Of a DNA stretch of 64,000 nucleotides, positions 14,975 to 37,926 are shown one piece after another (within the stretch, counting starts at the first letter, position 1; every line of letters begins with the position of its first letter). The notes under the pieces were generated by a model that was not told the origin of the DNA, made no database searches, and was given only the letters and a program-made list of their open reading frames with translations. Location: contig DATHAO010000049.1 of the NCBI GenBank assembly GCA_035296625.1, forward strand, positions 3,264 through 67,263, given 5' to 3'. The translations under genes and the position numbers were made by a program. The stretch is from Acidimicrobiales bacterium. Its GTDB lineage: Bacteria > Actinomycetota > Acidimicrobiia > Acidimicrobiales > VFJN01.

Positions 14975-14985
14975 CGCCGCGGGGT

Positions 14986-16050: not shown

Positions 16051-16557
16051 GTGGACCTCCTCGCACGGATCGTGTCGTTGGGAGGTGGAGAAGCGTGCGC
16101 GGGTGTGGTCGTCGCCGGTGCCCCACCGAGCTGCGGCGACGATCCGACTCTAACAGACTTTCGTGCCATGTCGATGGCTCTACGTACCTCGCATAGCGCG
16201 ACACGAGCGGAGCGATGGCTTCCGAGCCGGCGGGCGCGGCGGTCAACCGCTGAACGGGCCACAGGGCGGCATGGTCCGGTCGCACTGGATGTCCCCCCGG
16301 CTACGCCGACCCGGTGGAACGCTGTCGGTGACCGGACCCGTCGGCCGTAGGATGAGTGTCGACCTCGGCCTAATGCCGTGGGCGTCGGTGTACCCCTCTG
16401 CGAGCCCGACGGTTCGACGTCTGACGCCGCTATCGACCCCCTGCGACGCTAGTGTCCGCCGCCGCGCAGCGGAAGTGGCGTGCCACTGCCGGCCGGGGGA
16501 AGCGACGACGATGGGTGGCGGCCACGGGTGGTGGCACGAACGAGGAGTGACGGAGCG

Positions 16558-17526: not shown

Positions 17527-18728
17527 CAGGCACTGGCGACACCGAGACCGACCCGTCCGAGCCGGGGGTGAGCCGCCCGCCGAAGCGCCGGGTCGGCGCG
17601 CCCCTCGACGACGGGTTCGCCGCGGCCGACGGCTTCGACGAGCCCACGGGCCTGGTGAGGGCGGACGCGGCGCTCGCCGCCCCCACGGCCACGATCCACG
17701 ACCCCGACACGGCCCGGGCCCACCGGCTGGGCCTGCGCTGGTGGCACGAGCTCCTCTACATCGTGATCGTCTACGTGGCCTACTCGGCTGTGCGGAACCA
17801 GTTCGGCTCGGGCGCCGGCAACGTGGTCGACCCCGACCCGGCGTTCCACCACGCCGAGGCGATCATCCACGTGGAGCGGGCGATCGGGCTCTACGTCGAA
17901 CGGACCCTGCAGTCGTGGTACCTCGACCTGCCGGGGGACGGGCTGATCCGCTTCTGGAACGTGTACTACGGCATCTTCCACTTCGTGGTCACGGCCACGG
18001 CGCTGATCTGGCTCTACCGGGCCGCGCCGGCCCGCTACCGACTGTGGCGCAACACGCTCGCCCTCACCACGATGCTGGCGCTCATCGGCTTCGCCACGTT
18101 CTCGCTGATGCCGCCGCGCCTCATGGACGATCCCGGCATCTACGGCGGCTGCCCCGTCTACGCGGACGGTCCCCTGCCCGACGAGGCGGGACGCGAGCCG
18201 TGCGACGACTTCGGCTACGTCGACACGATCGCCGTCTACGGCGGCTGGGCCTCGTTCGGCAGCGACGAGATGGCGGCGGTGTCGAACCAGTACGCGGCGA
18301 TGCCGAGCATGCACATCGGCTGGTCGGCGTGGTGCTCGTTCGTGCTCGTGCCGCTGCTGCGGCGCCGCTGGCTCAAGGCCCTGGCGATCGCGTACCCGCT
18401 GTTCACCCTGTTCTGCATCGTGGTCACGGCGAACCACTACTGGATCGACGGGCTCGGCGGCCTGGCGTGCCTGGGCGTCGGATTCCTGCTGGCGCGGGCC
18501 TGCACGAGGTGGTTCGAGGCCCGGCATCGGGCCCGCCACGGCCTCACCGACCCGGCGGTGGACCCGTCGGTGGCGGTCGGCCCCGCCCTGCCTGGCGCGG
18601 CCCGGCTCGACCTGACGCGGCCCGCGCGGGCCCTCAGAGGCTCAGCCGGTAGCGCCGCGCTGGCGGACGGCGAGGGTGACCCGCCCGCTTCGGCGGGACA
18701 CCGGTCAGCACAATGGGCGACATGTTGA
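17523..18728 (+). CDS. PAP2-superfamily membrane protein (inositol-phosphorylceramide-synthase-like PAP2_3 type)
   Basis: ATG 17523 overlaps the upstream stop (ATGA). Polytopic, with AMPSMHIGWS (PSxH) and TANHYWIDG (HxxxD) phosphatase motifs. Confidence 0.7.
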   Translation: MTGTGDTETDPSEPGVSRPPKRRVGAPLDDGFAAADGFDEPTGLVRADAALAAPTATIHDPDTARAHRLGLRWWHELLYIVIVYVAYSAVRNQFGSGAGNVVDPDPAFHHAEAIIHVERAIGLYVERTLQSWYLDLPGDGLIRFWNVYYGIFHFVVTATALIWLYRAAPARYRLWRNTLALTTMLALIGFATFSLMPPRLMDDPGIYGGCPVYADGPLPDEAGREPCDDFGYVDTIAVYGGWASFGSDEMAAVSNQYAAMPSMHIGWSAWCSFVLVPLLRRRWLKALAIAYPLFTLFCIVVTANHYWIDGLGGLACLGVGFLLARACTRWFEARHRARHGLTDPAVDPSVAVGPALPGAARLDLTRPARALRGSAGSAALADGEGDPPASAGHRSAQWATC

Positions 18729-23599: not shown

Positions 23600-25591
23600 T
23601 CAGTAGCGGGCGGCCTCGGCCTCGTCGGCCAGTTCGAGCCACGTCTCCTCGGCTGCGCTCAGCTCGGCGCTGACCGCCGCCATCTCCCGGCCGACGCGGG
23701 CCAGCTCGACGTGGTCGCCCGTGCCCGTGGCCGCGTGGAGCTCCTCGGCCAGGGCGGCGTGGCGCTTCTCGAGCGAGCGCATGGCCTTCTCGGCCTGCTT
23801 CATGAGGTGGCGGAGCGTGCTGGGCGATCGCCCGGGGCCCAGGTTCCGGCCGTTGCCGGCGTTGTCGCCGCCGGGCGTGGGGGGCGTGCCGCCGTCGCGA
23901 CCCACCGGCCCGCGCCCGACCCTCGGTCCGGCGCCGCGGCCGCCGGCACGCGTCGAGCCGCTCCCGCCTGCGGCGCGAGCTGTGGAGGCTGTGGACGCGG
24001 CGGCGGGTGTGGCCGCCGGGGCCGCCGCGGCGGTTCGGGCCGCTCGGGCCGCTCGGCTCGCCCTCGCCGTTCGGGCCGGCGCCGGGCCGGCCCCGCCCGC
24101 GGAGGTGGTGCGGCCCCGCTGGCGCTTCGCCCGGCGCTCCGCCTCGTAAGCGGCATGGCCCCCGGGGACCCGCCCGGCGTGGCCCTGGCCGTCGAGCACG
24201 ATCACGTCGGTGACCGTGCGCTCCAGGAACGCCCGGTCGTGGCTCACGACGACGAGGGCGCCGGGCCAGTCGTCGAGCATGTCCTCGAGGGCCCGGAGCG
24301 TGTCGAGGTCGAGGTCGTTGGTCGGCTCGTCGAGCAGCAGTACGTTCGGGGCCTGGCGAAGCAGCAGCACGAGCTGCAGGCGCCGCCGCTCGCCCCCCGA
24401 CAGCAGACCGATCGGCGCCCACTGGGCGTCGGTGCCGAACCAGAAGCGCTCGAGCAGGGCGGCGTCGGTCCAGTCGGGCTGGCGGGCCGGACCGGCCACG
24501 GCCTCGCGCACCCGCCGGTCGAGCGGCAGGTCGATGCCCCGCTGGTCGTAGACGCCGACTCGCACCGTCGACCCGGTCACGACCTGGCCCTCGCGTGGCG
24601 TGCGGCGGCCGGCGATCACGTCCAGCAGCGTCGTCTTGCCGCTGCCGTTCACGCCCACGACGCCGAGTCGCTCGCCGGGCCCGAGCGCCAGGTCGACGCC
24701 GCGGAACAGCATGCGGTCGCCGTAGCCGTCGGCGACGCCGTGCAGCTCGACGACGGTGTCACCGAGCCGAGGCATTTGGACCAGATCGGCCAGGGGGAGG
24801 TCGTCGGGCCGGTCCCTCTCGGGGGCGCGACCGTCGATCACGGCCCGGGCGCCGGCGATGTGGGCCTTCGGCTTGCGGGTGCGGGCCGGGGCGCCCCGGC
24901 GCAGCCAGGCCAGCTCGGCGCGGGCCAGGTTGCGGCGCTTGGTGTCGGCCGTGGACTCGCGTTCGGCCCGCTCGACTCGGGCGGCCAGGTAGGAGGCGTA
25001 GCCACCCTCGTGGACGTGGCCCGTTCCCCGGTCGAGCTCGAGGATGCGGGTCGTCACCCGGTCGAGCACGTGGCGGTCGTGAGTGACCAGGACGAGCCCG
25101 CCGCGAAAGGCGGCCAGGCGGTCCTCGAGCCAGGCGATGGCGTCGAGGTCGAGGTGGTTCGTCGGCTCGTCGAGGATCAGCAGATCGTTCTCCGTCGCCT
25201 CCCCGACCTCGACCAACGCTCGAGCCAACGCCACCCGCTTGGCCTCGCCACCCGACAGCGTGGCGACCTCGGTGTCGGCGAAGCCGGCCATGCCCAGGCG
25301 ATCGACGATGGCCTCCCCCTCCCAGCCGCCGCCGACGGCGTGGCGCACGCGGCCGGCGGGCAGGTCCGCCTGCTGGCCGAGGGTCACGACCCGGGCGCCC
25401 CGACCACGCCGGACCACGCCGTCCTCGGGCGCCACCGTGCCGGCGAGGACGCCGAGCAACGTGGACTTCCCGCCGCCGTTGATGCCCACGACCGCCAGCC
25501 GGTCACCGCTCGACACCGTGAGCGACAGGCCGGTGAACAGCGGCTTCCCGGGCCGGCTCACCGTCAGCTCGGCGGCGTCGACGAGGATCAC
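23600..25591 (-). CDS. ABC-F family ATPase (Uup-like, two ABC domains, C-terminal coiled coil)
   Basis: Has two Walker A motifs (GINGGGKST, GVNGSGKTT), two LSGGE signatures and two LLLDEPTN(D/H)LD Walker B motifs. GTG start at 25591. A 96-aa Ala/Arg/Gly-rich linker precedes the C-terminal helix. Confidence 0.88.
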   Translation of the reverse strand: MILVDAAELTVSRPGKPLFTGLSLTVSSGDRLAVVGINGGGKSTLLGVLAGTVAPEDGVVRRGRGARVVTLGQQADLPAGRVRHAVGGGWEGEAIVDRLGMAGFADTEVATLSGGEAKRVALARALVEVGEATENDLLILDEPTNHLDLDAIAWLEDRLAAFRGGLVLVTHDRHVLDRVTTRILELDRGTGHVHEGGYASYLAARVERAERESTADTKRRNLARAELAWLRRGAPARTRKPKAHIAGARAVIDGRAPERDRPDDLPLADLVQMPRLGDTVVELHGVADGYGDRMLFRGVDLALGPGERLGVVGVNGSGKTTLLDVIAGRRTPREGQVVTGSTVRVGVYDQRGIDLPLDRRVREAVAGPARQPDWTDAALLERFWFGTDAQWAPIGLLSGGERRRLQLVLLLRQAPNVLLLDEPTNDLDLDTLRALEDMLDDWPGALVVVSHDRAFLERTVTDVIVLDGQGHAGRVPGGHAAYEAERRAKRQRGRTTSAGGAGPAPARTARASRAARAARTAAAAPAATPAAASTASTARAAGGSGSTRAGGRGAGPRVGRGPVGRDGGTPPTPGGDNAGNGRNLGPGRSPSTLRHLMKQAEKAMRSLEKRHAALAEELHAATGTGDHVELARVGREMAAVSAELSAAEETWLELADEAEAARY

Positions 25592-25598
25592 GGGGGCC

Positions 25599-25861
25599 GA
25601 CGGTACCGGCTTCCCCAGCCGGACCGGTGCGGCCAGCGGCCCCCCGGACCGACCGGTACGGGGAGCGGCAGCCCCCAGGCCGCGGCCGGTGCGGTCGACG
25701 GCCAGTCCCCCGGCCCGACCGGTGCGGTCGACGGCCAGTCCCCGGCCCGACCGGTGCGGGGAGCGGCGGCTCCCCAGGCCGGACCGGTGCGGGGAGCGGC
25801 GGCTCCCCAGGCCGGACCGGCGCGGGGAGCGGCGGCTCCCCAGGCCGGACCCGTGCGGCGG
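25599..25861. repeat. intergenic minisatellite: about 8 tandem units of about 33 bp in three sub-families
   Basis: Units 25749-25781 and 25782-25814 are identical (GACCGGTGCGGGGAGCGGCGGCTCCCCAGGCCG). Unit 25815-25847 differs at 1 nt. Two units carry a CGGTGCGGTCGACGGCCAGTCCCC(C)GGCCCGAC variant (about 25687-25748). Further degenerate units extend to 25599. Confidence 0.9.
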
Positions 25862-25876
25862 TTAACGTCGGCGGCC

Positions 25877-26716
25877 ATGCGGCGAGACGGCATCCTCTCC
25901 GGCCCGCTCGACATCGACGGCCCCCGGCGGAAGCCGCCGACCAACCCCACGGTCGAGGGGCGGCCGGGCCTGGCGGTCCAGCACCGCTCGACCGGGGTCG
26001 AGGGCACGATCCTGCGATTCGAGCACGGCGGCGTGGCGGTGCGGGATCGCTACTCGAAGGCCCGCCGACTGCTCCGGCTGGACCCCGGCGGATTCGTGGT
26101 CGACGGGATCCGCGTCACGCTGGTCCCGCCGAAGGCGTCGCCGGCCGGCGCCACGCGGCCCGCTCGCACGGCGTCGGGCTCCACGGCGGTCGCGGGACGA
26201 ACTGCCCGTGTAGCCCGGGCCAGCCGCATCCTCGTCGAGGGCATCCACGACGCCGAGCTGGTCGAGAAGGTGTGGGGCGACGACCTACGAGTCGAGGGCG
26301 TCGTCGTCGAGCGGCTCGACGGCATGGACCACCTGGCGGACGTGCTACGCGAGCTGCAACCAGGCCCGGGCCGGCGCCTCGGCGTGCTGCTCGACCACCT
26401 GGTCGACGGCTCGAAGGAGTCGCGCGTCGCCGCTGCCGTCGCCCACCCCCACGTGCTCGTCAGGGGCACTCCGTTCGTCGACGTCTGGCAGGCGGTGCGG
26501 CCCCGGGCGGCCGGCGTCGCCGTCTGGCCCGACGTGCCGAAGGGCCAGCCCTGGAAGGAGGGGGTGATCGCCGCCCTCGACCTGCGGATGGCGCCCGGCG
26601 AGTTCTGGCGCACGCTGCTCGGGCGGGTGCGCAGCTTCGCCGACCTCGACCCGGCGCTCGTCGGGGCGGTCGAGCAGCTGATCGACTTCGTAACCGCCGC
26701 CTCCGAGGACGCCTGA
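25877..26716 (+). CDS. DUF3097 family protein
   Basis: 279 aa from ATG 25877. Contains GVEGTILRFEHGGVAVRDRYSKARRLLRLDPGGFVVDGIRVTLV and a C-terminal ILVEGIHDAELVEKVWGDDLRVEG region, as remembered for actinobacterial DUF3097. Upstream track ORF 23153.. is an artefact. Confidence 0.55.
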   Translation: MRRDGILSGPLDIDGPRRKPPTNPTVEGRPGLAVQHRSTGVEGTILRFEHGGVAVRDRYSKARRLLRLDPGGFVVDGIRVTLVPPKASPAGATRPARTASGSTAVAGRTARVARASRILVEGIHDAELVEKVWGDDLRVEGVVVERLDGMDHLADVLRELQPGPGRRLGVLLDHLVDGSKESRVAAAVAHPHVLVRGTPFVDVWQAVRPRAAGVAVWPDVPKGQPWKEGVIAALDLRMAPGEFWRTLLGRVRSFADLDPALVGAVEQLIDFVTAASEDA

Positions 26717-26986
26717 ACGGTCGGGCCCAACCCGAGGCCGCCGAACCGGCACCCGCCGCACCGCGGCACACGTGCGCCGCTGGAGGGCTGGGCGGCCGGG
26801 CGCCCTGGCGGCGCGCAGCGGTCTGGCCGACGGCGATGTTGTGCGCAGGGCGGGTGTGAGCCGCCGGTTCCGCACGACATTGCCGAACGACAGCGGTCGG
26901 ACAGCGCCGGGCGCGGGCCACCCAGGCGGTGCAGGGCGGAGGCCGGACGGGCACGCGGCCGGGCCGACGAGCTCGGGCGGGAGGGG

Positions 26987-28162
26987 TCAGGTGGGGGTGG
27001 CGGCGCGGCGGAGGGCGCGCTCGAGAAGGAGCGGGTCGCCGAGACGGCGGCGCAGCTCGCGTTCCAGTCCGGCGATCGGGTGCAGGTTCTGCGGCGCCCG
27101 GGCGTCGTTGTGGGGCTGGCTGGCGAAGCGGGGCAGAGTGGCGGTGACCCGATCCGCCACCCTCACGGCGTCGTCGCGGTTGAGCTCACCCGACAGCTCG
27201 CAGCGAACGACGCCCCACCAGGCATGGGTCGCAGGCCCCGGCAATCGGAAGTACCACGAGTACCGGAACCGGTGCGCTCCGGTGGCGAACAGCGGCGTGC
27301 GCTGCCCGGCCGCCAGCTGCGTCACGACCTCCTGGCGGGCGGGCGGCAGGTACGACACGTGGTGCGCCTTCACGTAGCCCACAGCCCCCGGGATGTGGCG
27401 GCGATCGCCGAGCGGACCGTCGACGACGAGCAGGTCGTCCTCGTCGAACCGGACGTCCGCTCGGCCCAGCGGGACGCCGACACCGGCGATGCCGTCGGCC
27501 TCCACCCCGTCCTCCACCTCCACCCCACCGGGGCCCGTCGGACCCACGCCCGCAGGCCCGACCGGCTCGACCGGCCCGACCGGCGCGCCGGCGCCGCCCG
27601 AACCCGAGCCCGTACCCGCACCCCAGCCCGCAGCCGTACCCGCACCCGCAGCGACCATCACGGAGACCGGCATGGGGGCGGAGCACGACGTCCCAGCCCG
27701 GGCCTCGACGGCCACGCGGCCCTCCAGGTCGCCTCGCCCCCGCCCGAGGGCCTGACCGAGGGGATCGCCGCCGCCGTCGGGCACCGGGTACGGGTGGTAG
27801 TCCCCATGCATGGTCAGGATCGGCTCGACGCCGTCCCCGGGGCACAACACCCCCCGCCGCACCTCGGCGACAACGACCTGGGCTCGGCCATCGCAGCGCA
27901 CGGCGCCGGCACCCCAGCTGGCGCACAGGCCCTGTCGCGTCGTGCCGTCGTCGCCGGTCACCCACACACGGGCGTCGACCCGCTGGACACCGTCGACGAA
28001 GTACACCGTCCGCGGCGGGGGCACCGGGCCCGGGTCGACCGGGGCCCAGTCGTCGGGCAGCGCCTCGACCGCCAGGTCGACCGTGGCGGTCGAGGCGTCG
28101 AGCACGGCGGCGTCGACCGGCGCACCGTAGTCGGGGGCCCAGGTCTCGACGGCGAAGCGCAT
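26987..28162 (-). CDS. NurA-like nuclease candidate (divergent; would otherwise be called hypothetical)
   Basis: 391 aa. ATG 28162-28160 shares 1 nt with the sbcC stop. Motif order is YFVDGVQ ... LLVVDGPL ... VGYVKAHH ... YSWYFRL ... PQNLHPIAGLERELRRRLG. Has an internal Gly/Ala/Pro/Val-rich insert. Confidence 0.45.
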   Translation of the reverse strand: MRFAVETWAPDYGAPVDAAVLDASTATVDLAVEALPDDWAPVDPGPVPPPRTVYFVDGVQRVDARVWVTGDDGTTRQGLCASWGAGAVRCDGRAQVVVAEVRRGVLCPGDGVEPILTMHGDYHPYPVPDGGGDPLGQALGRGRGDLEGRVAVEARAGTSCSAPMPVSVMVAAGAGTAAGWGAGTGSGSGGAGAPVGPVEPVGPAGVGPTGPGGVEVEDGVEADGIAGVGVPLGRADVRFDEDDLLVVDGPLGDRRHIPGAVGYVKAHHVSYLPPARQEVVTQLAAGQRTPLFATGAHRFRYSWYFRLPGPATHAWWGVVRCELSGELNRDDAVRVADRVTATLPRFASQPHNDARAPQNLHPIAGLERELRRRLGDPLLLERALRRAATPT

Positions 28163-30654
28163 CAGGCCTCCACCCGCTCGACCGTGGCGGCGCCGCCGAC
28201 CTTGCGCACCTCGAACCGAACCGGCAGCCGCTCGGCCAGCTCGCGCACGTGCGTCACCACACCCACCATGCGCCCGCGGGCGCCCAGCTCGTCGAGGGCG
28301 GCGGCCACGATGTCGAGCGTGTCCGGGTCGAGCGTGCCGAAGCCCTCGTCGAGGAACAGCGCTTCGAGATGGGCCGAGCCACCCACGGCCAGACCCGCCA
28401 CCTGATCGGCCAGCGCGAGCGCCAGCGCCAGCGACGCTAGGAAAGTCTCGCCCCCCGACAGCGTGCGGGCCGGGCGGGTCTGCGAGGCGTTCGTGTGGTC
28501 GACCACCAGGAAGCCGCCCGTCCTCGTGTCGACGGCCAGCGAGTACCCGCCGCCGCTCAGCTCGCCGAGGATGTCGGTGGCGCCGGCCACGAGTTGGTGG
28601 ACGGCCTCGTCGAGCAGCCACTTCTCGAACCGGTTGGCGGCGAGGTGAGCGGCCAGGGTGTCGGCGACCTGGTGCTGCTCGACGGCGGCCCCGGCGTCGG
28701 ACCGCAGGCGCTCGACCTCGGCGAGCTGGGCGTCGAGGTGGTCGACGGCCTCGTCGGCTCGGGCCCGGGCGGCGGCCACGGCCTCGCCCGGCCAGGACGC
28801 GCCGACGTCGGTCACTCCCGCATCGCGGCAGGCGGCCAGCAGGGCCTCGAGCTGGGTCGCCGCCTCGGCCCGTGCGGCATCGACGGCCCGGCGCCTCTCG
28901 GCGGCGGCCTCGGCGAGCACGGGGCGGCGCTCGGCGGCCCAGGCGAGCAGGGCGTGCCAGTCGGCCGCAAGGTCGCACCGTTCGGCCGCCGGGGGCGCGA
29001 GATCGGCGACCGTGTCGCGGGCGGTGTCGAACGCCCGGCGGGCCTCGCGCTCGCGCTCGACCAGCCCGGCGTACCGCCGCTCGGCCGCCCGCCGGGCGAG
29101 CCGCGCATCACGTTCGGCCCGCCGCGCCTTCTCGAGCGTCTCCTCGGCGTCGACCACGACGGCCAGCTGCGCCTCGATGGCCGCCACGTCGATCAGCGCC
29201 GCGCCCCCATCGACGCCGGTGCCGGTGCCGGCGGATTTGACCCGCCCCGGGCGGGAGGCCGCGGACGGGGCGAGCGCCGGAGCGAGCGACGCCAGCGCGG
29301 CCCCCAAGCGGGCGTCGAGCTCGGCCAGCTCGGCGCCCACCCGCATGAGCTTCTCGTCGATGCGGGCCTGGTGGGTGCGGGCCTCGGTCAGCGCCCGGCC
29401 GGCGGTGGCTACCACGGCGTCGGCCTCGGCCAGCGCCCGCTCGGCGGCGGACAGATCTGCGGGATGATGCCCGGCCGGCAGCTCCTCAACCGCCTGCTGG
29501 CACACCGGGCACGGCTCGCCGACCGCCAGCTCGGGGACGAGGGCCAGTGCCCGCAGCTCGGCCCGGACGCGCTCGAGGTCGGCGGCGCGCTCTTCGCGGG
29601 CCCGGCGTGCGGCCTCCTCGACCTCGGCCGCGATCGCGACCCGGTCGGCCGCCTCGGCCTCCGCGCCCCGGCCCCGGCCGAGCGTGTCGACCAGGCCGGC
29701 CCGCCGCCGGTGGTCGCCGAGCAGGGCGTCCAGGGTGCGCCGGTCGGGCAGGGCGGCCAACCTCTCCTCGCCCTCGGTGACCGCGGCCACGGCGTCGTCG
29801 TCGATCTCGGCGGCCTGGTGCCGGGCGTGGTCGGCCTCGCCGACCGCAGCGGCTAGCTCGTCGACCCCGTCCGGGGCGGTGAGCGCTCCGACCCGCTCGG
29901 CCTGCTCGGCCGCGAGCTCGGACCGCTCGGCCGCCTCGACGGCCCGGGCTGCCAGCTCGTCGAGCCGGGGGCGCTCGGCCGCCAACCGGTCGCCAAGCCG
30001 GGTGAGCCGGGCGATCCGCTCGACGGCGGCGGCCCGCGCTGCGGGGGTGGCCGCGGCCAGACGGTCGAGCTGCCCGGCGACGACGTCGGCCCGGTTGCGG
30101 GCGAGCGCACCCCGTTGGCGGGCGACACTCGCGACCCGGTCGTAGAGGCCGAGGTCGAGCAGGCGGACGAGAAGGTCCTGCCGGCTGCGGGGCTTGTCGT
30201 GCAGGAACCGGGCGAACTGGCCCTGGGGCAGCGACACGCACGTCGTGAAGTGCTCGAACGTGAGGCCGAGGCGCGCGGTGACCGCCGCCGTGACCTCGTC
30301 GGCCGTGCCGGCCAGCACCTCGCCGCCGCTCTCGAGACGGGCCTCCTTGGTGGTGGCGCCGCCCGCCTTGGTCGCCCGGACGACGCGCACGGCCGTGTGA
30401 GACACGCCGTCGATCGTGAAGTCGAGCCGGACCCGCGCCTCGTTGAGGTTCTGGCTGATGACCGGCGCCACCGCCCGCCTGTCGTCGAGGCGGGGCACCG
30501 AGCCGTAGAGCGCGAACGTGAGGGCGTCGATGACGCTGGTCTTGCCGGCGCCGGTCGGCCCCGCCAGCGCGAACAGGTCGGCGCCGGCGAAGTCGACGAC
30601 CGTCGGCGCCCGGAAGGCGGTGAAGCCCTCGATCTCCAGCCGCACCGGCCTCAT
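28162..30654 (-). CDS. sbcC: SbcC/Rad50-family DSB repair ATPase
   Basis: 830 aa. Has the N-terminal GPTGAGKTSVIDA Walker A, long Ala/Glu/Arg coiled coils, the central CPVCQQ zinc hook, the C-terminal LSGGETFLASLALALAL signature and the LFLDEGFGTLD Walker B. Confidence 0.9.
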   Translation of the reverse strand: MRPVRLEIEGFTAFRAPTVVDFAGADLFALAGPTGAGKTSVIDALTFALYGSVPRLDDRRAVAPVISQNLNEARVRLDFTIDGVSHTAVRVVRATKAGGATTKEARLESGGEVLAGTADEVTAAVTARLGLTFEHFTTCVSLPQGQFARFLHDKPRSRQDLLVRLLDLGLYDRVASVARQRGALARNRADVVAGQLDRLAAATPAARAAAVERIARLTRLGDRLAAERPRLDELAARAVEAAERSELAAEQAERVGALTAPDGVDELAAAVGEADHARHQAAEIDDDAVAAVTEGEERLAALPDRRTLDALLGDHRRRAGLVDTLGRGRGAEAEAADRVAIAAEVEEAARRAREERAADLERVRAELRALALVPELAVGEPCPVCQQAVEELPAGHHPADLSAAERALAEADAVVATAGRALTEARTHQARIDEKLMRVGAELAELDARLGAALASLAPALAPSAASRPGRVKSAGTGTGVDGGAALIDVAAIEAQLAVVVDAEETLEKARRAERDARLARRAAERRYAGLVEREREARRAFDTARDTVADLAPPAAERCDLAADWHALLAWAAERRPVLAEAAAERRRAVDAARAEAATQLEALLAACRDAGVTDVGASWPGEAVAAARARADEAVDHLDAQLAEVERLRSDAGAAVEQHQVADTLAAHLAANRFEKWLLDEAVHQLVAGATDILGELSGGGYSLAVDTRTGGFLVVDHTNASQTRPARTLSGGETFLASLALALALADQVAGLAVGGSAHLEALFLDEGFGTLDPDTLDIVAAALDELGARGRMVGVVTHVRELAERLPVRFEVRKVGGAATVERVEA

Positions 30655-32063
30655 AGCAGCCGCCGCTGGCCGGGTGCCCCGGACGGCCGCTCCGCGGCGC
30701 CGGCCGCCTCCGCCGGACGGCCGGACCGCCCGGCCCCGATCGCCACCGGCTCGGGCTCGGCCGAACGCCCGGCGTGCTCTCCATCGGGCTCGGCGGAGCG
30801 CCCGACCGGCGGGCCATCGGGCTCGGCGGCTCGCTCGGGATGGGCCCCGCCGGCGGAGTCGGGCGCGACGTCGTCGGCGGCGTCGACATCGATGTCGTCC
30901 TCGAGCGGCTCGCTGGTCATCTCGTCGACCAGCTCGTCGAACAGGCGGACCACCCGCTCGTCCGCGGCGTCATGGTCGTCGAGGTACTCGGCGAACAGGT
31001 CGTGCGGGGTCCGGCGCAGCCGGTCGGGATCGGACCGGCGCCGCGCCTCGTCGCCCTCCCGAGGCGCCAGCACGACCTCGACGGCGTCGGGTACTTGGGC
31101 CCGGATTTCGTCGGCGAGACCGGCCCGGGCGGACTCGTCCAGCACGATGCGCAGGTGGGCGTCGCCCACGACGGCCGGGTCGGCCGCCCGGGCCAGCACG
31201 TCGGCCAGCGTGCCCCGCAGCGTGCGCAGCCGGCGGCCGGCCCTGAGCGGGACACCCCGCACGGTCGCGGGTAGGCCGGGCCGCAGCTCCACCACGTTGA
31301 CCGCGGGGTCGTTGGCCGTCTCGCCGAAGTCGAGCTGCAACGGCGAGCCGCAGTAGTGCAGCGGCGCCGGCCCGGGCAACCGCTGGGCCCGGTGGAGGTG
31401 GCCGAGCGCCACGTACTGGGCGGCGCCGGGGAACGCGGTGGCCGGCACCCAGTAGTCGAACACCGTGTGAGCGCCGCGCTCGCCGCCGCCCAGCTCGCCG
31501 CCCATGACCGTGAGATGGGCGACGACGAGGTTCACCGTGTCGCCACGGAACCCGGCGGTGAGGGCGTGGAGGATGCGCCCGACCCGGTCGCGGTAGGTCT
31601 GGTTCGCGTCGGCGGCGTCGCCGGCGAGCAGCTGGTCGGCGGTGACGACGTAGCGCTGGGAGGGGAACGGCACCAGGGCGACGAGGGCCGTGTGGCCGCC
31701 GCCGTCGACCTCGAGCACGCCACCGTCGGTCGGCGGCCGGATGGACGGGGCCACGTGGATGCCGCTCGCCGAGGACAGCGGCGCCACCGCCCCGAGCCGC
31801 TGGGCCGAGTCGTGATTGCCGGAGATGACGACCACGGGCCGGCCACCGGCGGCCAGGTCGAGCAGCGCCCGGTAGACGATGCGCTCCGCCTCGGCTGTGG
31901 GGGTGGACGTGTCGAACAGGTCGCCGGCCACGATGACGAGGTCGACCGACTCGGCGTCGGCGATGCCGGCGATCTCGGTGAGCACGGCCTGGTGCTCGGC
32001 CGCCCGGGACCGCCCGCGCAGGGCCTTGCCGACGTGCCAGTCGGAGGTGTGGAGGAGCTTCAC
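30651..32063 (-). CDS. sbcD: SbcD/Mre11-family nuclease
   Basis: GTG 32063. Contains MKLLHTSDWHVG, VIVAGDLFD, SGNHD and GHLH phosphoesterase motifs. Shares an ATGA overlap with sbcC. Has an acidic/low-complexity C-terminal tail of about 90 aa. Confidence 0.9.
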   Translation of the reverse strand: MKLLHTSDWHVGKALRGRSRAAEHQAVLTEIAGIADAESVDLVIVAGDLFDTSTPTAEAERIVYRALLDLAAGGRPVVVISGNHDSAQRLGAVAPLSSASGIHVAPSIRPPTDGGVLEVDGGGHTALVALVPFPSQRYVVTADQLLAGDAADANQTYRDRVGRILHALTAGFRGDTVNLVVAHLTVMGGELGGGERGAHTVFDYWVPATAFPGAAQYVALGHLHRAQRLPGPAPLHYCGSPLQLDFGETANDPAVNVVELRPGLPATVRGVPLRAGRRLRTLRGTLADVLARAADPAVVGDAHLRIVLDESARAGLADEIRAQVPDAVEVVLAPREGDEARRRSDPDRLRRTPHDLFAEYLDDHDAADERVVRLFDELVDEMTSEPLEDDIDVDAADDVAPDSAGGAHPERAAEPDGPPVGRSAEPDGEHAGRSAEPEPVAIGAGRSGRPAEAAGAAERPSGAPGQRRLL

Positions 32064-32120
32064 GGCGCGACCGCCGTGACTCGCTCCGACGCCGAGAGGG
32101 CTTGCCGAACGGGCACCGGA

Positions 32121-33998
32121 TCAGCCCTGCGGGAAGCCGGCGAAGGGGTCGATCTCGGCGGGGCGCGTCGAGCCGTTCGTCCCGTGGCCGTTCGCGTGGC
32201 CGTTGCCGTTCGTGTGGCCGTGGCTGTTCGTGTGGCCGTCGCCGGCGCCCGCCTCGGCCCGGTCACCAGATCCGGCGGGGCCAGGACCGCCCGATCCGCC
32301 GGCCAGGCCCGTGGCCGCCTCGCTGGCCCGCGTGGCCCACGCCGGGAACGGGAACTGCACGACGAGCGGGATGGGCAGCTCGGGCTGGCTGACCAGCATC
32401 GTGCCCGGCTTGACGATCGTGGCCCGCAGGCGCTGCACGGGGGGCAGGAAGCCGTACTCGCCCCGAGTCGCCTCGGCCGAGTCGAGCCGGCCCACGACCC
32501 GGATGGCGGAGTTCGCCACGATGCGCCGCTCGACCTCGCTCGCCGTCTGCTGGGCGCCGACGAGGATGATGCCGAGGGACCGCCCCCGCTCGGCCACGTC
32601 GAGCAGGATCTCCTTGATCGGGCTCGATCCCTCGCGGGGGGCGTACTTGTTGAGCTCGTCGAGCACGACGAACTGCAGGGGCCGGGCCTGGCCGGACCGC
32701 TCCTTGCGCTCGAACGCCTGGCCGAGCACGACCCCCACCACGAAACGCTTGGCCCGGTCGTTGAGGTTGTGCAGGTCGACGACCGTCACCTGGGCCCGGT
32801 CGAAGTCGACCTGGTGGCGCTCGGGCCGGGGCACATCGGCCCGGATGAGTGAGCGTAGGTGGGGCCGGGCGCCGTGCAATCGCCGCAGGAACGCGTTGAT
32901 CGTGCCCGCACCGATCGCCCGGCCGCCCCACTGTTCGAGCCCGTCGAGGTCCACCTTGGCGCTGATCAGCTCGACGAGGTCGTCGAACGTGCGCACGACG
33001 ATGCCGTCGATCTCGACCATCCCGTCGTCGAGCGGCTTCGCCTCGTGCTTCAGCCTGGCGGAGACGTTGTGGACGACCATCGTGTACTGCTGGCGGTCGT
33101 CCTGGCTGTCGGCGAAGAGGAACGGCAGCAGCTCGTCGGCGCAGAACTGCTGGATCGTCCAGAAGAACGACGTGACGTCGCGGGCCCGGGAGGCCACGTC
33201 GGGGCTGGCGTTCGGGTCGTCGCGGGTGGGCGGGGCGAAGAACGCCACCGACCCGAACGGCCCGGCGGGCAGGCCGAGGCGGGCGTAGCGGGCCGGCTCG
33301 TGATCGCCCAGCTCGGTGTTCGCGTGGTCGAGGAAGAGGAGATCCTCGCCCTTCACGTTGAAGATCAGCGCCTTGGTGTTGGCCGACTCGGGGCCCAGCA
33401 CCCCCGAGTGGAAGACGCTGTAGAGCAGGAAGCTGGCGTACGTCGTCTTGGTCGCCACCCCCGAGACGCCGCTGATGTTGACGTGCGCGCCCCGCGTGCC
33501 GTCGAGGAACTCGAGGTTGAGGTAGAAGGGCTCGTCGTCGCGCGACAGGCCGGCCGGCAACCGCTGGCGCATCTGGGTGAACAGCAGGGCGTCGTCGCGG
33601 TCGGCCCCGACGGCCTTGCGGACCTCTTGCCCGGGCAGCGGCGGGACGAAGATCTCGGGCTCGAACCGGGTGGCCAGCACGAGCGCCGCCTCGCTCACCT
33701 GCGCCGGGAGAACGCCGTCGGCGACGAGGAACACGTCGGAATCCATCCGGGCGCCCTCATGGCGGGCCCGGACCTGCGACACGACGCCGGAGATGCGCAG
33801 CCGCTGGCCGTCGGGAAGGGCACGGTCGACGAAGACGACGTCGTCGAGCTGGAGGTAGGAGCCCTCACCCACCCCGACCCAGAACTCGAGAGGGGTGGCG
33901 GGCTCGGTGCCGATGACGCGCCCCACCACGGGCGAGGCGGACACGGCCCCGTCGGCCGCCGGCGGGACCGCGCTCGGGGAGGGGACTGCGCTGTCCAT
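32121..33998 (-). CDS. HerA-like FtsK/HerA-superfamily ATPase
   Basis: 625 aa. Has an N-terminal barrel-like region (VGRVIGTEP..LEFWV...YLQLDDVVFV), the P-loop segment NISGVSGVATKTT, the Walker B LQFVVLDELNKYAP, and GRSLGIILVGAQQ further downstream. Sits 57 nt upstream of sbcD. Confidence 0.65.
   Translation of the reverse strand: MDSAVPSPSAVPPAADGAVSASPVVGRVIGTEPATPLEFWVGVGEGSYLQLDDVVFVDRALPDGQRLRISGVVSQVRARHEGARMDSDVFLVADGVLPAQVSEAALVLATRFEPEIFVPPLPGQEVRKAVGADRDDALLFTQMRQRLPAGLSRDDEPFYLNLEFLDGTRGAHVNISGVSGVATKTTYASFLLYSVFHSGVLGPESANTKALIFNVKGEDLLFLDHANTELGDHEPARYARLGLPAGPFGSVAFFAPPTRDDPNASPDVASRARDVTSFFWTIQQFCADELLPFLFADSQDDRQQYTMVVHNVSARLKHEAKPLDDGMVEIDGIVVRTFDDLVELISAKVDLDGLEQWGGRAIGAGTINAFLRRLHGARPHLRSLIRADVPRPERHQVDFDRAQVTVVDLHNLNDRAKRFVVGVVLGQAFERKERSGQARPLQFVVLDELNKYAPREGSSPIKEILLDVAERGRSLGIILVGAQQTASEVERRIVANSAIRVVGRLDSAEATRGEYGFLPPVQRLRATIVKPGTMLVSQPELPIPLVVQFPFPAWATRASEAATGLAGGSGGPGPAGSGDRAEAGAGDGHTNSHGHTNGNGHANGHGTNGSTRPAEIDPFAGFPQG
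32173..32240 (-). repeat. short-period repeat (GTGGCCGTT-type) encoding the His/Asn/Gly-rich C-terminal tail of the HerA-like protein
   Basis: The DNA is ...CCGTGGCCGTTCGCGTGGCCGTTGCCGTTCGTGTGGCCGTGGCTGTTCGTGTGGCCGTC... It translates on the minus strand to GHTNSHGHTNGNGHANGHGTNG. Confidence 0.8.
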
Positions 33999-34083
33999 GC
34001 CGGGAACGCTAGTGGCGCCCTGTGACAGCGACGGTGACCCCCCGGCGCTGGTGCCGGAGCCGGCTCGCTCCTAGGGTCCGGGC

Positions 34084-34797
34084 ATGGTCGATGGCAGCGA
34101 GGTCGTGTCCACGACGATCGAGGACGGCGTGGCCGTCGTGCGGTTCGACGACGGGAAGGCCAACGTGCTGTCGCACGCCTCGATCGCGGCGCTCGGCCGC
34201 GCCCTCGACCGAGCCGAGCTCGACGCCCGGGCCGTCTGCATCGTCGGGCGGCCGGGGAGGATGTCGGCCGGCTTCGACCTCTCGGTCATGACCCAGGGTC
34301 CCAAGGCGGCCCGACACCTCGTCATGGAGGGCGGCGACCTGCTCATGCGGCTCTTCATGCACCCCCAGCCGGTGGTGGCGGCCGTGACCGGCCACGCCCT
34401 GGCCGCCGGGGCGCTCCTGGTGCTGTCCTGCGACGTGCGGATCGGGGCCGACGTGCCCGCGAAGATCGGGCTCAACGAGACGTCGATCGGCATGCCCCTC
34501 CCTCTCTTCGCGCTCGAGCTGGCCCGTGACCGGCTGGATCCCCGCCATCTGACCCGGGCCACGCTGGCGGCCGAGGTCTACGACCCCCACGGCGCCGTGG
34601 CCGCCGGCTACCTGGACCGGGTCGTCGCGGCGGACGCCCTCGTCGCCGAGGCCACGGCCGAGGCCGCGCGCCTCGGCGAGTACTCGACGTCGGCCTACGC
34701 CCAGAGCAAGCAGGTGCTGCGGCAGCCGACCATCGACCGGGTGACCGAGGGCGGGGCCGCGGACCTCGAGCGGTTCGTCGTCGAGACCGGCGGCTGA
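34084..34797 (+). CDS. enoyl-CoA hydratase/isomerase (crotonase) family protein
   Basis: 237 aa. Contains VVRFDDGKANVLS...IVGRPGRMSAGFDL...VAAVTGHALAAGALLVLSCD, a crotonase fold signature. Confidence 0.8.
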   Translation: MVDGSEVVSTTIEDGVAVVRFDDGKANVLSHASIAALGRALDRAELDARAVCIVGRPGRMSAGFDLSVMTQGPKAARHLVMEGGDLLMRLFMHPQPVVAAVTGHALAAGALLVLSCDVRIGADVPAKIGLNETSIGMPLPLFALELARDRLDPRHLTRATLAAEVYDPHGAVAAGYLDRVVAADALVAEATAEAARLGEYSTSAYAQSKQVLRQPTIDRVTEGGAADLERFVVETGG

Positions 34798-34859
34798 GGC
34801 CGGGCCCCCGGCGGTGGGACGCCCCGGCGGAGGGCACCCGCGGGCGCGCCGGACCGGCG

Positions 34860-35693
34860 CTACGCGGACGGGCGGGGGCGCTGCGGCGGGATGGTGTCGC
34901 CGACCATCTCGGCGGCCACCTCGGCCACCCGCCGGCGCTGCGACCGGGCCAGGCGGCGGACGTGCTCGAACGCGGTCACCGCGTCGAGGTCATGGCGTCC
35001 CATGACCAGGCCCACCGCCCGCTCGATGACGACCCGGCTCTCGAGTGCGTGCTGCAGCTGCTCGACGAGGCGGCCCTGGTGCTCGTTCAACACCGCCTCC
35101 CCGAGGTGCCCGTCGACCAGTCGGGTGAAGGCGCACAGGGCGTTCACCTCGCTGTCATCCCACTGGTGGGGTGCCTCGCAGTAGGCGTTGAGCGACCCGA
35201 CGGCGACCGGACCGACACGCACCGGCACGCCGAGCACCGAGCCGATTCCCGCGGGCACCACGATGTCGGCCAGCCCCGGCCACCGCTCGTCGTGAGTGAA
35301 GTCGTGCACGATCACGACGCGGTCGTGCACGAGCGAGTCGATGCAGGGCCCATAGCCGAGCTGCTCCTGCGCGACCTCGAGCACCCGTCCGGGCTCGTCG
35401 GTCGACACGACGTAGCGAGAGGTCTCGGTCTCGTCGACGAACATCAGCCCGGCGCCGGTCACGCCGAACACGGCGACCACCCCGTCGACGATCTGGCCGA
35501 GGGCGGCCTCGAGCCCACCGGCGTGCTCCAGGTCCTTCAGCCCCTTGAGCGTGGTCGCCAGGCCTGCCGCGTCGACGTGCGGGGTGCGGCGGCCCTCCCG
35601 CTCCATGTCTTCACGGTCCACGGCATCCACTTTGGCAGGCCGCCACCGACCGGCGCACCCCCCGATTCCGGCGGGCCCGCTGGGTGCCGCCAC
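34860..35693 (-). CDS. GAF + ANTAR domain RNA-binding regulator
   Basis: Has a central GAF-like region, then the C-terminal LQHALESRVVIERAVGLVMGRHDLDAVTAFEHVRRLARSQRRRVAEVA (ANTAR). The start is uncertain; the internal MEREGRR at about 35600 is possible. Confidence 0.8.
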   Translation of the reverse strand: MAAPSGPAGIGGCAGRWRPAKVDAVDREDMEREGRRTPHVDAAGLATTLKGLKDLEHAGGLEAALGQIVDGVVAVFGVTGAGLMFVDETETSRYVVSTDEPGRVLEVAQEQLGYGPCIDSLVHDRVVIVHDFTHDERWPGLADIVVPAGIGSVLGVPVRVGPVAVGSLNAYCEAPHQWDDSEVNALCAFTRLVDGHLGEAVLNEHQGRLVEQLQHALESRVVIERAVGLVMGRHDLDAVTAFEHVRRLARSQRRRVAEVAAEMVGDTIPPQRPRPSA

Positions 35694-35720
35694 GCCGCCG
35701 CGGCGTGGCGGACCCGTCGA

Positions 35721-36098
35721 TCACTCGGCGACCGTCATCTCGTCGCGGGTGAAGAGGGGCCCGAAGCCCAGCCTGGCGATCAGGCGCTGCACCAGGGGCG
35801 GTACGCCGCGCAGGGTCACGCCCCGCCCTGTGTTCGCGGCCGCCGCCGCCACGAGCGCCCGCAGCCCGTCGGCCCCGATGAAGTCGGCCCCGGCGAGGTC
35901 GACCACGAGGCGGCGCCCGGTCGGGGTGGAGCGCGACGCCGCGTCGGCCAGCCCGTCGATCAGGATGCCGGCCGTGAAGCGGTCGACGTCGCCATGGACG
36001 ATCACCGCCACGGCATCTTCGGTCTCGAGGACCATTACGTCACAGGGTTGCGCGATCACGCTTGACCACCTCTCGCCGGAGCGACCTCGGGTCTGCAC
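35721..36098 (-). CDS. STAS-domain anti-sigma-factor antagonist
   Basis: Contains AVAVIVHGDVDRFTAGIL...LVVDLAGADFIGADGLRALV...GVTLRGVPPLVQRLI. The start is uncertain; the internal GTG/ATG near VMVLETE is plausible. Confidence 0.75.
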   Translation of the reverse strand: MQTRGRSGERWSSVIAQPCDVMVLETEDAVAVIVHGDVDRFTAGILIDGLADAASRSTPTGRRLVVDLAGADFIGADGLRALVAAAAANTGRGVTLRGVPPLVQRLIARLGFGPLFTRDEMTVAE

Positions 36099-36197
36099 AA
36101 GGCCGGTTCGCAGGGGTCAAGGCGAGCCGCGCCCTCACCCTAGCGGGTGACCGGCGAGACCACGCGTCCCCGCAGGGTCCGGCGGTAGCTTGCCGGC

Positions 36198-36887
36198 GTG
36201 GACCTGATCGATGCCCTGCGCAGCACGGGTGCGGCGCGGGCGTTCCGGCCCGACCCCGTCCCGGACGAGGTCCTGGCCAGGGTGCTCGACACCGCTCGCT
36301 TCGCGCCCAGCGGCGGCAACCGGCAGGGCTGGCGGGTCGTCGTGGTACACGACCCGGCCACGCGGCGGGCCATGCGCGACCTGTATGTCGACGCCTGGTA
36401 CGACTACCTCGCCCTCGGCGCCGCGGGGCTCACACCCTGGGCCCCCACGAACGACCGTGCGGCCGAGGCCCGGGCTCTGGCCGCCGCCCCGGGCATCGCC
36501 GAGGCGGCCCGGGCGGGCAGCGGCGGGTTCGCCGAGCACCTCGACGAGGTGCCGGTCCTGCTGGTCGTGCTCGCCGACCTCGGGGCGCTGGCCGCCGTCG
36601 ACCGCGACCTCGACCGGTACACGTTCGCCGGCGGGGCGTCGATCTACCCGTTCACCTGGAGCGTGCTGCTCGCCGCCCGGGCCGAGGGCCTCGGCGGAGT
36701 GGTCACCACCATGTCGATCCGCAGCGAGGACCGGCTCAAGGCCCTGCTCGGCGCCGCCGACCACCACGCCGTGGCGGCCGTCGTGGCCCTCGGCCGCCCG
36801 GTCCACCAACCGACCCGGCTACGACGTCAGGCCGTGGCCGACTTCACCACCGTCGACCGCGTCGACGGCCCGCCGTTCTCGGCGTGA
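36198..36887 (+). CDS. nitroreductase family protein
   Basis: GTG start. Contains LIDALRSTGAARAFRPDPVPDEVLARVLDTARFAPSGGNRQGWRVVVV. Confidence 0.82.
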   Translation: MDLIDALRSTGAARAFRPDPVPDEVLARVLDTARFAPSGGNRQGWRVVVVHDPATRRAMRDLYVDAWYDYLALGAAGLTPWAPTNDRAAEARALAAAPGIAEAARAGSGGFAEHLDEVPVLLVVLADLGALAAVDRDLDRYTFAGGASIYPFTWSVLLAARAEGLGGVVTTMSIRSEDRLKALLGAADHHAVAAVVALGRPVHQPTRLRRQAVADFTTVDRVDGPPFSA

Positions 36888-36906
36888 GCCCGGCCGGCGG
36901 CCGCCC

Positions 36907-37926
36907 GTGACGGCAGCGGAGGCCGTGCTCGTCGTGCTCGCCGGCGTGTTCGCCGGGACGGTGAACACGGTGGTCGGATCGGGCTCGCTGGTGACGTTTC
37001 CCGTGCTGCTGGCCGTGGGCTACCCGGCGCTCGTCGCCAACGTGTCCAACACGGTCGGCCTCGTGCCGGGCTCGATCAGCGGCTCGTGGGGCTACCGGCG
37101 CGAGCTGGCGGGCCAGCGGCACCGGGCCCGGGTGCTGGGCGCGGCCTCGACGACGGGCGGCCTCACGGGCGGCGTGCTGCTGCTGTCGCTGCCGGGCAGC
37201 GTGTTCGAGCAGGTCGTGCCCGTGCTGATCCTCGTGGCGTCCGGGCTGATGGCGGCCCAGCCCCGCATCACCCGGCAGATGGCCCGGCGCCGGGCCGCGG
37301 CCGCCTCGACCGGCGGCAGGGACGGCGCCGACGACGGCCCGTCCCACCCCGATGCGGACGACCCCGGCGGGGGTGACCCCGGCTCGGGCATCGGCGATGG
37401 CACCGGCACCGGCGACCCCGGAGCCGGCCCAGGCGACCCCGGAGCCGGCCTACGCGACGCCGGAGCCGGCCTACGCGACACCGGAGCCGACGGACCTGCC
37501 CGAGGAACGGGCACGCCGGTCGCCCGAGGGACGGGCAGGCCGGGCGGGACGGCGTCCACCGGCGGCGGCGCCGAGCGGACCAGCCCGCTGCTCGTCGCGG
37601 GCGTCTTCGCCACCGGCGTCTACGGCGGCTACTTCGGGGCCGCCCAGGGGATCATCCTGCTCTCGCTGCTCGGCATCTTCGTGGCCGACCACCTCCAGCG
37701 GCTCAACGCCCTCAAGAACGTGCTGGCCGCGCTCGTCAACGGGGTGGCCGCCGTGCTGTTCATCACCACGAGCGACGTGGCGTGGGAGGCGGCCGGTCTG
37801 CTCGCTGTCGGTGCGACGGTGGGCGGCCAGATTGGCGCGCACGTGGGCCGCCGCATCCCGGCAGCCGCGCTGCGGATCGTGGTCGTGGTGGTCGGCGTCG
37901 TGGTCGCGCTGCACTTCTGGCTCTGA
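36907..37926 (+). CDS. TauE/SafE (TSUP) family anion exporter with a large low-complexity loop
   Basis: GTG 36907. Contains AGVFAGTVNTVVGSGSLVTFPVLL and, in the second half, GVYGGYFGAAQGIILL. The two halves are split by a Gly/Asp/Pro/Ala-rich loop of about 100 aa. Confidence 0.78.
   Translation: MTAAEAVLVVLAGVFAGTVNTVVGSGSLVTFPVLLAVGYPALVANVSNTVGLVPGSISGSWGYRRELAGQRHRARVLGAASTTGGLTGGVLLLSLPGSVFEQVVPVLILVASGLMAAQPRITRQMARRRAAAASTGGRDGADDGPSHPDADDPGGGDPGSGIGDGTGTGDPGAGPGDPGAGLRDAGAGLRDTGADGPARGTGTPVARGTGRPGGTASTGGGAERTSPLLVAGVFATGVYGGYFGAAQGIILLSLLGIFVADHLQRLNALKNVLAALVNGVAAVLFITTSDVAWEAAGLLAVGATVGGQIGAHVGRRIPAAALRIVVVVVGVVVALHFWL
37411..37494 (+). repeat. 21-bp tandem repeat x4 inside the TSUP loop
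   Basis: Units at 37411, 37432, 37453 and 37474 (SGCGACVCCGGAGCCGRCSNA). They encode GDPGAGP / GDPGAGL / RDAGAGL / RDTGADG. Confidence 0.85.

Follow-up and report, generated by a model that had tools for sequence, protein, structure and literature searches.

What function is served in an actinobacterium by a locus where genes for HerA- and NurA-like proteins enclose those for SbcD and SbcC? In textbook accounts, long-range DNA end resection in bacteria is the work of RecBCD, AddAB, or AdnAB, and HerA-NurA belongs to archaea. The locus lies in a 64,000-nucleotide stretch of Acidimicrobiales DNA (contig DATHAO010000049.1, positions 3,264 to 67,263 of the forward strand; hereafter the window), which has a G+C content of approximately 75%. 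Open reading frame (ORF) calling on the sequence places the gene set herA-sbcD-sbcC-nurA on the minus strand at positions 26987-33998. We conclude that this set is a real operon built from known protein families. We also consider it probable that the four genes constitute a single transcription unit for the processing of DNA double-strand ends, most likely a damage-induced end-resection module. The unit and the promoter-like motif that precedes it have the following parts, given in window coordinates with product lengths in amino acids (aa).

34006-34027, minus strand: 22-nt promoter-like motif TGTCACAGGGCGCCACTAGCGT, consisting of TGTC, 12 nt, and the −10 hexamer TAGCGT, and ending 7 nt before the herA ATG
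32121-33998, minus strand: herA, 625 aa, ATG start, bacterial-type HerA, predicted hexameric ATPase/translocase
32064-32120, minus strand: spacer between herA and sbcD, 57 nt
30651-32063, minus strand: sbcD, 470 aa, GTG start, Mre11-type nuclease
28162-30654, minus strand: sbcC, 830 aa, ATG start, Rad50-type SMC-like ATPase
26987-28162, minus strand: nurA, 391 aa, bacterial-type NurA, predicted nuclease

The junctions between these genes were read directly from the sequence. The TGA codon of herA ends at 32121 and the GTG codon of sbcD lies at 32063, which leaves the 57-nt gap. Within CTATGAGG, the stop codon of sbcD overlaps the start codon of sbcC by 4 nt (ATGA), and within GCCTGATGC the sbcC stop and nurA start are joined as TGATG with a 1-nt overlap. 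A preliminary description of this DNA had given the same three values, and they are exact. Moreover, public gene predictions made independently for this contig yield identical products of 625, 470, 830, and 391 aa. The ATG of nurA lies inside a longer mechanical ORF (26987-28978). Neither terminator-like sites nor sigma-70-like promoter sites were seen when the herA-sbcD spacer was inspected, and no intrinsic-terminator-like site was found on the minus strand within the four-gene unit. Translational coupling would be expected to yield matched amounts of the subunits.

To judge how widely this arrangement is kept, one genome per GTDB species was scanned with the HerA protein and the best 80 loci were retained, with gene order in each locus determined by tblastn using the four window proteins. 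Most of these loci are from Acidimicrobiia (including Microthrixaceae, Iamiaceae, and Acidimicrobiaceae), and the collection also includes Egibacteraceae, Euzebyales, and Micromonosporaceae/Rugosimonospora. In this survey of sbcCD neighbourhoods, which the preliminary description had proposed, the order herA-sbcD-sbcC-nurA on one strand is complete in 58 of the 80 loci. Another 20 run into a contig end and match this order as far as they extend, and the exceptions number two (L055 and L060). Because 58 related loci repeat this four-gene order on a single strand, the arrangement is not a product of chance. The packing is likewise maintained, in that the sbcD-sbcC junction, as inferred for 67 loci, is an overlap of −4 or −1 nt in 49 of them, and the median spacers are 13 nt for herA-sbcD and 11 nt for sbcC-nurA. 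The same order is present in Nonomuraea gerenzanensis and on a linear plasmid of Streptomyces sp. BB1-1-1. On the cyanobacterial Sphaerospermopsis plasmid AP018315 the order is nurA-herA-sbcD-sbcC.

The identity of the first gene product was established from proteins of solved structure. A phmmer search of the PDB matched HerA of Deinococcus radiodurans (DrHerA; 7f6d_B) with E=9.3e-144 over query residues 18-567, which span both halves of the protein, and a profile made from 13 HerA sequences matched the 7F6D HerA with E=1.1e-199. The Pfam HAS-barrel model (PF09378) gives E=0.033 and 14.7 bits, which is below its 25.2-bit cutoff. The N-terminal region nevertheless aligns to DrHerA residues 9-328, a span that holds the HAS barrel of that protein (PMC9960219). 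The Walker A motif GVATKT occupies residues 180-185, with K184/T185 corresponding to DrHerA K175/T176, and the Walker B motif VVLDE occupies residues 444-448, with D447/E448 corresponding to DrHerA D487/E488. These residues are invariant in the HerA alignment. Archaeal HerA structures were not retrieved by either the single-sequence or the profile search with this protein. Judged by these alignments, the product of gene 1 is a bacterial-type HerA, and it is predicted to form a hexamer with DNA-dependent ATPase and translocase activity.

Beyond the ATPase core, HerA carries a further conserved element at its end.

32124-32153, minus strand: conserved C-terminal tip of HerA, IDPFAGFPQG (aa 616-625), located after a His/Asn/Gly-rich low-complexity linker

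In every HerA homologue (L001-L083), the core ends with FPFPAWATR and is followed by a variable low-complexity linker, which finishes in a conserved acidic-aromatic tip. In Acidimicrobiales the sequence of this tip is DPFAGFPxG despite their differing linkers, and in other Acidimicrobiia it is EDPFEDL. In Micromonosporaceae, Nonomuraea, and related lineages it takes the form DPFAVVG...TD(D/E)DIPF, DDDIPPF, or DDDVPPF. We take the DDDIPF/DDDIPPF form to resemble the C-terminal tip of SSB (DDDIPF, DDEPPF). The conserved tip may be a peptide that tethers a partner. In DrHerA, by comparison, there are approximately 14 disordered residues, whereas the actinobacterial proteins have a long disordered tail that ends in the conserved tip. 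The His/Asn/Gly-rich linker in the window (approximately 32154-32330) is an extra segment relative to most homologues.

The last gene of the operon could be assigned by the same route and, in addition, from its predicted fold. NurA of D. radiodurans (DrNurA; 7f6d_H) was matched by phmmer with E=1.7e-16 and by a profile of 41 sequences with E=2.4e-27, with the Thermotoga protein TM1739 (1zup) next in the profile search at 5.6e-4. An AlphaFold model of the protein has a mean predicted local distance difference test score (pLDDT) of 68.6, with values of 80-95 in the core. When this model was searched with Foldseek, DrNurA (7f6d_G) was the top match with E=1.2e-13 and TM1739 (1zup) followed with 4.3e-10, both at a probability of 1.00. 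Residues D57, K265, and R355 correspond to DrNurA D53, K201, and R309 and are invariant in 41 homologues; numbering of the NurA chain in 7F6D is offset by 20, and all three residue pairs fit that offset. Mutation of D53, K201, or R309 abolishes the nuclease activity of DrNurA (PMC9960219). Archaeal NurA structures were retrieved by neither sequence nor profile search, and none is among the significant Foldseek matches. From its sequence and predicted structure, gene 4 is a bacterial-type NurA with the RNase H-like NurA fold and conserved catalytic residues. It differs from DrNurA by the following feature.

27449-27682, minus strand: Gly/Ala-rich insertion of 78 aa in NurA (aa 161-238), predicted to be disordered (pLDDT <50)

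This insertion is missing from most homologues, whose typical length is approximately 308 aa compared with the 391 aa found here. Low-complexity extras that are Gly/Ala/Pro- or His/Asn/Gly-rich are present in the NurA, SbcD, and HerA copies of this metagenome-assembled genome.

The two central genes are recognized by existing family models. SbcD matches NCBIfam TIGR00619 with 1e-55 and 189.2 bits (cutoff 77.65) and the Pfam Metallophos model with 1.9e-13, and it carries the five phosphoesterase motifs (I-V) SDWH at residue 7, GDLFD at 47, GNHD at 82, AHL at 182, and GHLH at 221. Its C terminus has an extra low-complexity extension of approximately 85 aa (approximately 30651-30910) that is missing in most homologues. 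SbcC scores above the cutoffs of the Pfam models AAA_23, SbcC_Walker_B, and SMC_N, and it matches TIGR00618 with 3e-79 and 267 bits, which is under the trusted cutoff of 478.5 bits. Its motifs include a Walker A sequence GPTGAGKT at aa 32, a CPVC zinc hook at 382, an LSGGE signature at 732, and Walker B at 766. Both proteins score far higher on bacterial models than on archaeal Mre11/Rad50 models. They share with E. coli SbcCD and Mre11-Rad50 the phosphoesterase motifs, the ABC-type ATPase head, the coiled coil, and the CxxC zinc hook. In contrast to the E. coli genes, sbcD and sbcC are here embedded between herA and nurA, and SbcC is shorter (830 aa) and hence has a shorter coiled coil. The preliminary description had named these two proteins SbcD and SbcC from motifs, all of which are present, and had called genes 1 and 4 HerA-like and NurA-like. 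The family models bear out the first two names, and the sequence and profile searches, together with the predicted fold of gene 4, agree with the other two.

An annotation gap is exposed by these assignments, in that curated models miss this NurA and HerA though the structures of close homologues have been solved. Specifically, NurA has no match at E<=0.1 in Pfam and NCBIfam, and for HerA these libraries return the sub-threshold HAS-barrel match only. Because the curated libraries fail on both proteins, their identities come from sequence searches against proteins of solved structure. Public data contain more than 5,600 relatives of this NurA. All of the 120 best matches are listed as 'hypothetical' or are unnamed, and they lack a precomputed Pfam domain, because the Pfam and NCBIfam models miss this branch.

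If the four genes form one unit, how might it be controlled? New here is a conserved 22-nt promoter-like motif located 7-8 nt before the herA start codon. Across 2.56 Mb of related loci, counting both strands, the strict pattern TGTC-N12-TAnnnT has 57 matches, of which 40 lie directly upstream of herA, in approximately 1% of the searched sequence. For these 40 sites, the distance from TAnnnT to the start codon is always 6-9 nt. With a position weight matrix, 53 of 77 loci score above the 99th percentile of background maxima, including 13 sites from outside the training set. A TGTCAC...TAnnnT copy is also located directly before sbcD in three loci (plus strand; L054 at 11722, L056 at 16290, and L057 at 11725). 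In L056, where 4.7 kb of unrelated genes separate the two, sbcD has its own copy of the motif at a distance from herA. The presence of the motif before sbcD in split or spaced operons suggests that the genes stay in one regulon.

The motif resembles a known class of damage-responsive promoters. The in-vivo motif of the transcriptional activator PafBC is tGTCgg(N10)tA(N3)T, in which a −26 element is combined with a canonical −10 element in a mode termed 'sigma adaptation' (PMC8635444). The motif upstream of herA has the same 22-nt length and geometry, with TGTC, 12 nt, and TAnnnT. It is also similar to the Streptomyces recA damage promoter, TTGTCAGTGGC-N6-TAGggT (PMC2375139), in which TGTC is followed by AGTGGC rather than by AC. 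Single-stranded DNA is the activating signal for PafBC (PMC11804915). A search for a LexA/SOS box ahead of herA found none in the window or in 76 of the 77 loci. A sigma-70 consensus scan yielded no promoter, which is expected because of the G+C content of the genome. Because the motif ends only 7 nt before the herA ATG, the transcript is predicted to be leaderless. From the sequence of this PafBC-type motif, we infer a leaderless, damage-induced transcript. The only other strict match in the 64-kb window is TGTCGCGGGTGACCACTAACCT (10255-10276, minus strand), located upstream of an ORF for BacA/undecaprenyl-diphosphatase (9368-10240).

The boundaries of the unit are set by two genes on the opposite strand.

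34084-34797, plus strand: enoyl-CoA hydratase (ECH) family gene, the divergent upstream neighbour and 5′ boundary of the unit
25877-26716, plus strand: DUF3097 gene, the convergent downstream neighbour and 3′ boundary of the unit

Two minus-strand ORFs (34071-34562, 34009-34590) were weighed as a possible fifth gene of the operon and rejected, as the real gene at this position is the plus-strand enoyl-CoA hydratase. An Rfam search of 24000-37000 gave no match. The enoyl-CoA hydratase gene is kept as upstream neighbour in 34 loci, and in many Acidimicrobiales loci both flanks are conserved, with ECH upstream and DUF3097, ABC-F, NifU, and DXS genes downstream. This conserved synteny indicates that the operon occupies a stable chromosomal position and is not part of a mobile island.

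In some loci the operon is interrupted. In L003, L007, L010, and L026, sbcC and nurA are approximately 2.3 kb apart, and the L003 insert (15434-17657) carries PhoX and DUF1707 genes. In L056, an insert between herA and sbcD (11832-16223) carries methyltransferase and DUF222-HNH genes. The inserted genes of L003 and L056 were rejected as extra components, as they are unrelated genes, with those for PhoX, DUF1707, and the methyltransferase on the opposite strand and that for DUF222-HNH on the same strand.

The Streptomyces sp. BB1-1-1 plasmid (NZ_CP134205, 412760-430367; L082) provides a different setting. There, the operon adjoins TIGR02680, TIGR02678, and DUF2397 genes together with a gene for an ImmA/IrrE peptidase, and a gene annotated with a 'helicase associated domain' comes after the operon. 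We take the TIGR02680/TIGR02678/DUF2397 set to be Wadjet-like. Such surroundings are in keeping with an island for plasmid maintenance or defence.

How might the four proteins act on a DNA end? In the mechanism we propose, DNA damage would cause a WYL-type activator (PafBC or an equivalent) to turn on the leaderless herA-sbcD-sbcC-nurA mRNA, and translational coupling would deliver the subunits in fixed stoichiometry. SbcCD/Mre11-Rad50 recognizes and nucleolytically opens blocked or hairpinned ends. In the same way, SbcC2D2 from this operon might recognize and open or clean ends that are blocked, hairpinned, or protein-bound. In the next stage, a HerA hexamer with a NurA dimer as its cap would thread the duplex, with NurA cutting the 5′ strand during ATP-driven translocation, and this cutting would leave a 3′ tail for RecA loading. 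In D. radiodurans, the complex formed by a HerA hexamer with a NurA dimer moves along duplex DNA by translocation and resects the 5′ strand to leave a 3′ tail (PMC9960219). In archaea, HerA binds Mre11, and the four genes form a co-transcribed set (PMC2288612). The strongest genomic argument for joint action is that sbcDC keeps nurA apart from its obligate partner herA in 58 loci, which argues for a joint need of all four genes. Cyanobacteria and Thermales show linkage of the same genes in another order, which argues in addition for selection on co-function.

Several observations weigh against a damage-induced end-resection module. In D. radiodurans, deletion of nurA-herA leads to approximately 10-fold higher resistance to UV and mitomycin C (PMC9960219), and the two genes contribute little to radioresistance in that organism (PMC4663267). 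These knockout phenotypes suggest that the in-vivo role of bacterial NurA-HerA is not simply pro-repair. That SbcCD and HerA-NurA might cooperate physically in bacteria is a deduction from gene linkage. On the regulatory side, approximately one quarter of the loci are without the TGTC element, and the position weight matrix was trained on 40 sites that it also scored, such that the strict count and the 13 additional sites are the independent part of this evidence. Furthermore, the bases after TGTC are mostly AC where the mycobacterial PafBC consensus has gg. This difference weakens the case for damage induction.

The same two bases underlie an alternative view of the promoter, in which the likeness to PafBC sites is coincidental and the element is an ordinary constitutive promoter particular to the lineage or a site for some other regulator, leaving the operon without damage induction. 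The AC at motif positions 5-6 and the single other strict match in the window, before the BacA gene, are compatible with such a view, as is the fact that the PafBC assignment comes from motif likeness. We regard it as somewhat unlikely, however, given that the 22-nt geometry is exact, that enrichment at herA is extreme (40 of the 57 matches), and that the motif recurs before sbcD. This recurrence in split operons also bears on whether the four genes, even if co-expressed, encode two independent machines with no joint complex or hand-off. SbcCD would then act on hairpins or palindromes at forks, and HerA-NurA would serve another transaction such as RecJ/SSB modulation or chromosome segregation. 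Such a division is suggested by the separation of nurA-herA from sbcCD in Deinococcus and Thermus (PMC4663267, PMC5448004), by the interaction of DrHerA with RecJ (PMC4663267), and by some loci in which insertions of unrelated genes are tolerated at the herA-sbcD or the sbcC-nurA junction. In addition, the SSB-like DDDIPF tip on HerA of several Actinomycetes hints at partners outside the operon. Even so, two separate machines appear improbable. The placement of sbcDC between nurA and herA in 58 loci would otherwise be hard to maintain, split operons that keep the motif at sbcD point to the same regulon, linkage in two orders in different phyla indicates selection on co-function, and archaeal HerA binds Mre11 (PMC2288612).

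A different concern is the target of the module, which might serve mainly to destroy DNA that is foreign or linear, such as plasmids, phage, or incoming DNA, in the manner of RecBCD or a defence system, rather than to repair the chromosome. HerA-like/NurA-like pairs do serve in defence systems, and the weak structural or sequence matches obtained here include TdpAB (8wet_G) and the defence HerA proteins 8xau, 8yho, and 9c1m. The Streptomyces sp. BB1-1-1 copy is on a linear plasmid beside the TIGR02680/TIGR02678/DUF2397 and ImmA/IrrE genes, and the cyanobacterial copy is on a conjugative plasmid. Genome protection was raised as a possible HerA-NurA role by Blackwood et al. (PMC3326311), and Thermus hepA mutants, besides being UV- and heat-sensitive, show altered uptake and donation of DNA (PMC5448004). 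Yet PADLOC gave no specific defence-model match for the operon, but only weak, partial matches to generic ATPase domains (HerA models, 9e-9; mad3, 1e-23 over the C-terminal head; LmuB, 9e-15) and none for NurA. A search of 2.9 M viral contigs likewise found no close homologue. In Acidimicrobiales, moreover, the operon resides in a conserved chromosomal setting (DXS, NifU, ABC-F) rather than in a variable island, and its promoter resembles a DNA-damage promoter. We therefore judge a primary role in the destruction of foreign DNA to be very unlikely.

As a separate observation, 17 viral contigs (IMG/VR, L085-L101) encode distant HerA-like ATPases with 26-34% identity. Relatives of SbcC, SbcD, and NurA were not detected near these genes.

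The proposed end-resection module invites comparison with the archaeal operon of Sulfolobus and Pyrococcus, with which it shares the four functions and the gene order. The Sulfolobus mre11 operon has the order herA, mre11, rad50, nurA (PMC4351679), and co-transcription and damage induction of archaeal herA-mre11-rad50-nurA have been reported (PMC4351679, PMC2288612, PMC8708640). The archaeal order noted in the preliminary description is thus correct. Its suggestion of an 'archaeal-style' machine holds for the layout but not for ancestry, as all four proteins encoded here are bacterial-type, a term applied to HerA and NurA in the sense of Xu et al. 2023 because archaeal HerA and NurA structures were not retrieved. 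On these sequence comparisons, the archaeal likeness is one of shared layout and not of recent shared ancestry.

The closest characterized relative is NurA-HerA of D. radiodurans (PDB 7F6D, 7WRW, 7WRX; Xu et al. 2023, PMC9960219). The families, the Walker residues, and the NurA catalytic residues are the same, and by analogy a HerA6-NurA2 assembly would be expected here. The Deinococcus genes form a two-gene nurA-herA operon away from sbcCD, whereas sbcD-sbcC lies between herA and nurA in the window. Cheng et al. wrote that the connection with sbcCD 'remained to be uncovered' (PMC4663267). Bacterial HerA and NurA linked to sbcD and sbcC are nonetheless found both in AP018315 and in Oceanithermus profundus, where the nurA-hepA-sbcD-sbcC linkage was pointed out by Blesa et al. 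2017 (PMC5448004). These two clusters have the order nurA-herA-sbcD-sbcC rather than herA-sbcD-sbcC-nurA.

The novelty claimed in the preliminary description was overstated, as the arrangement is near-universal among the sampled Actinomycetota relatives, is present in cyanobacteria as well, and is in print for Oceanithermus. Our literature search found no experimental study of an sbcCD-linked bacterial HerA-NurA, including the Oceanithermus and cyanobacterial versions. It also found no paper on actinobacterial HerA or NurA, although the arrangement might be listed in the two papers likeliest to mention bacterial herA-sbcCD neighbourhoods, which were outside the search (Iyer et al. 2004; Constantinesco et al. 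2004). The occurrence of the linkage in bacteria is therefore common and has been remarked on before, and what is added here is the promoter motif, the breadth of conservation, the HerA tail, and the annotation gap.

What does this operon mean for the bacteria that carry it? To our knowledge, the Deinococcus system, which is unlinked to SbcCD and has puzzling knockout phenotypes, is the only bacterial NurA-HerA that has been studied biochemically. In a large bacterial phylum, as the present findings reveal, HerA and NurA enclose SbcCD in one tight unit with a damage-type promoter-like motif ahead of it. Because culturable organisms carry the operon (Nonomuraea, Micromonosporaceae, and Streptomyces sp. 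BB1-1-1), cooperation between SbcCD and HerA-NurA is directly testable in bacteria. A broader reading, which we offer tentatively and on balance lean away from, is that Actinomycetota, and separately some cyanobacteria and Thermales, might possess a four-component SbcCD-HerA-NurA machine that is switched by PafBC through a leaderless promoter, is wired to the SSB network by the HerA tip, and has a layout that converged on the archaeal one. If such a machine exists, it would add another route of end resection in bacteria to those of RecBCD, AddAB, and AdnAB.

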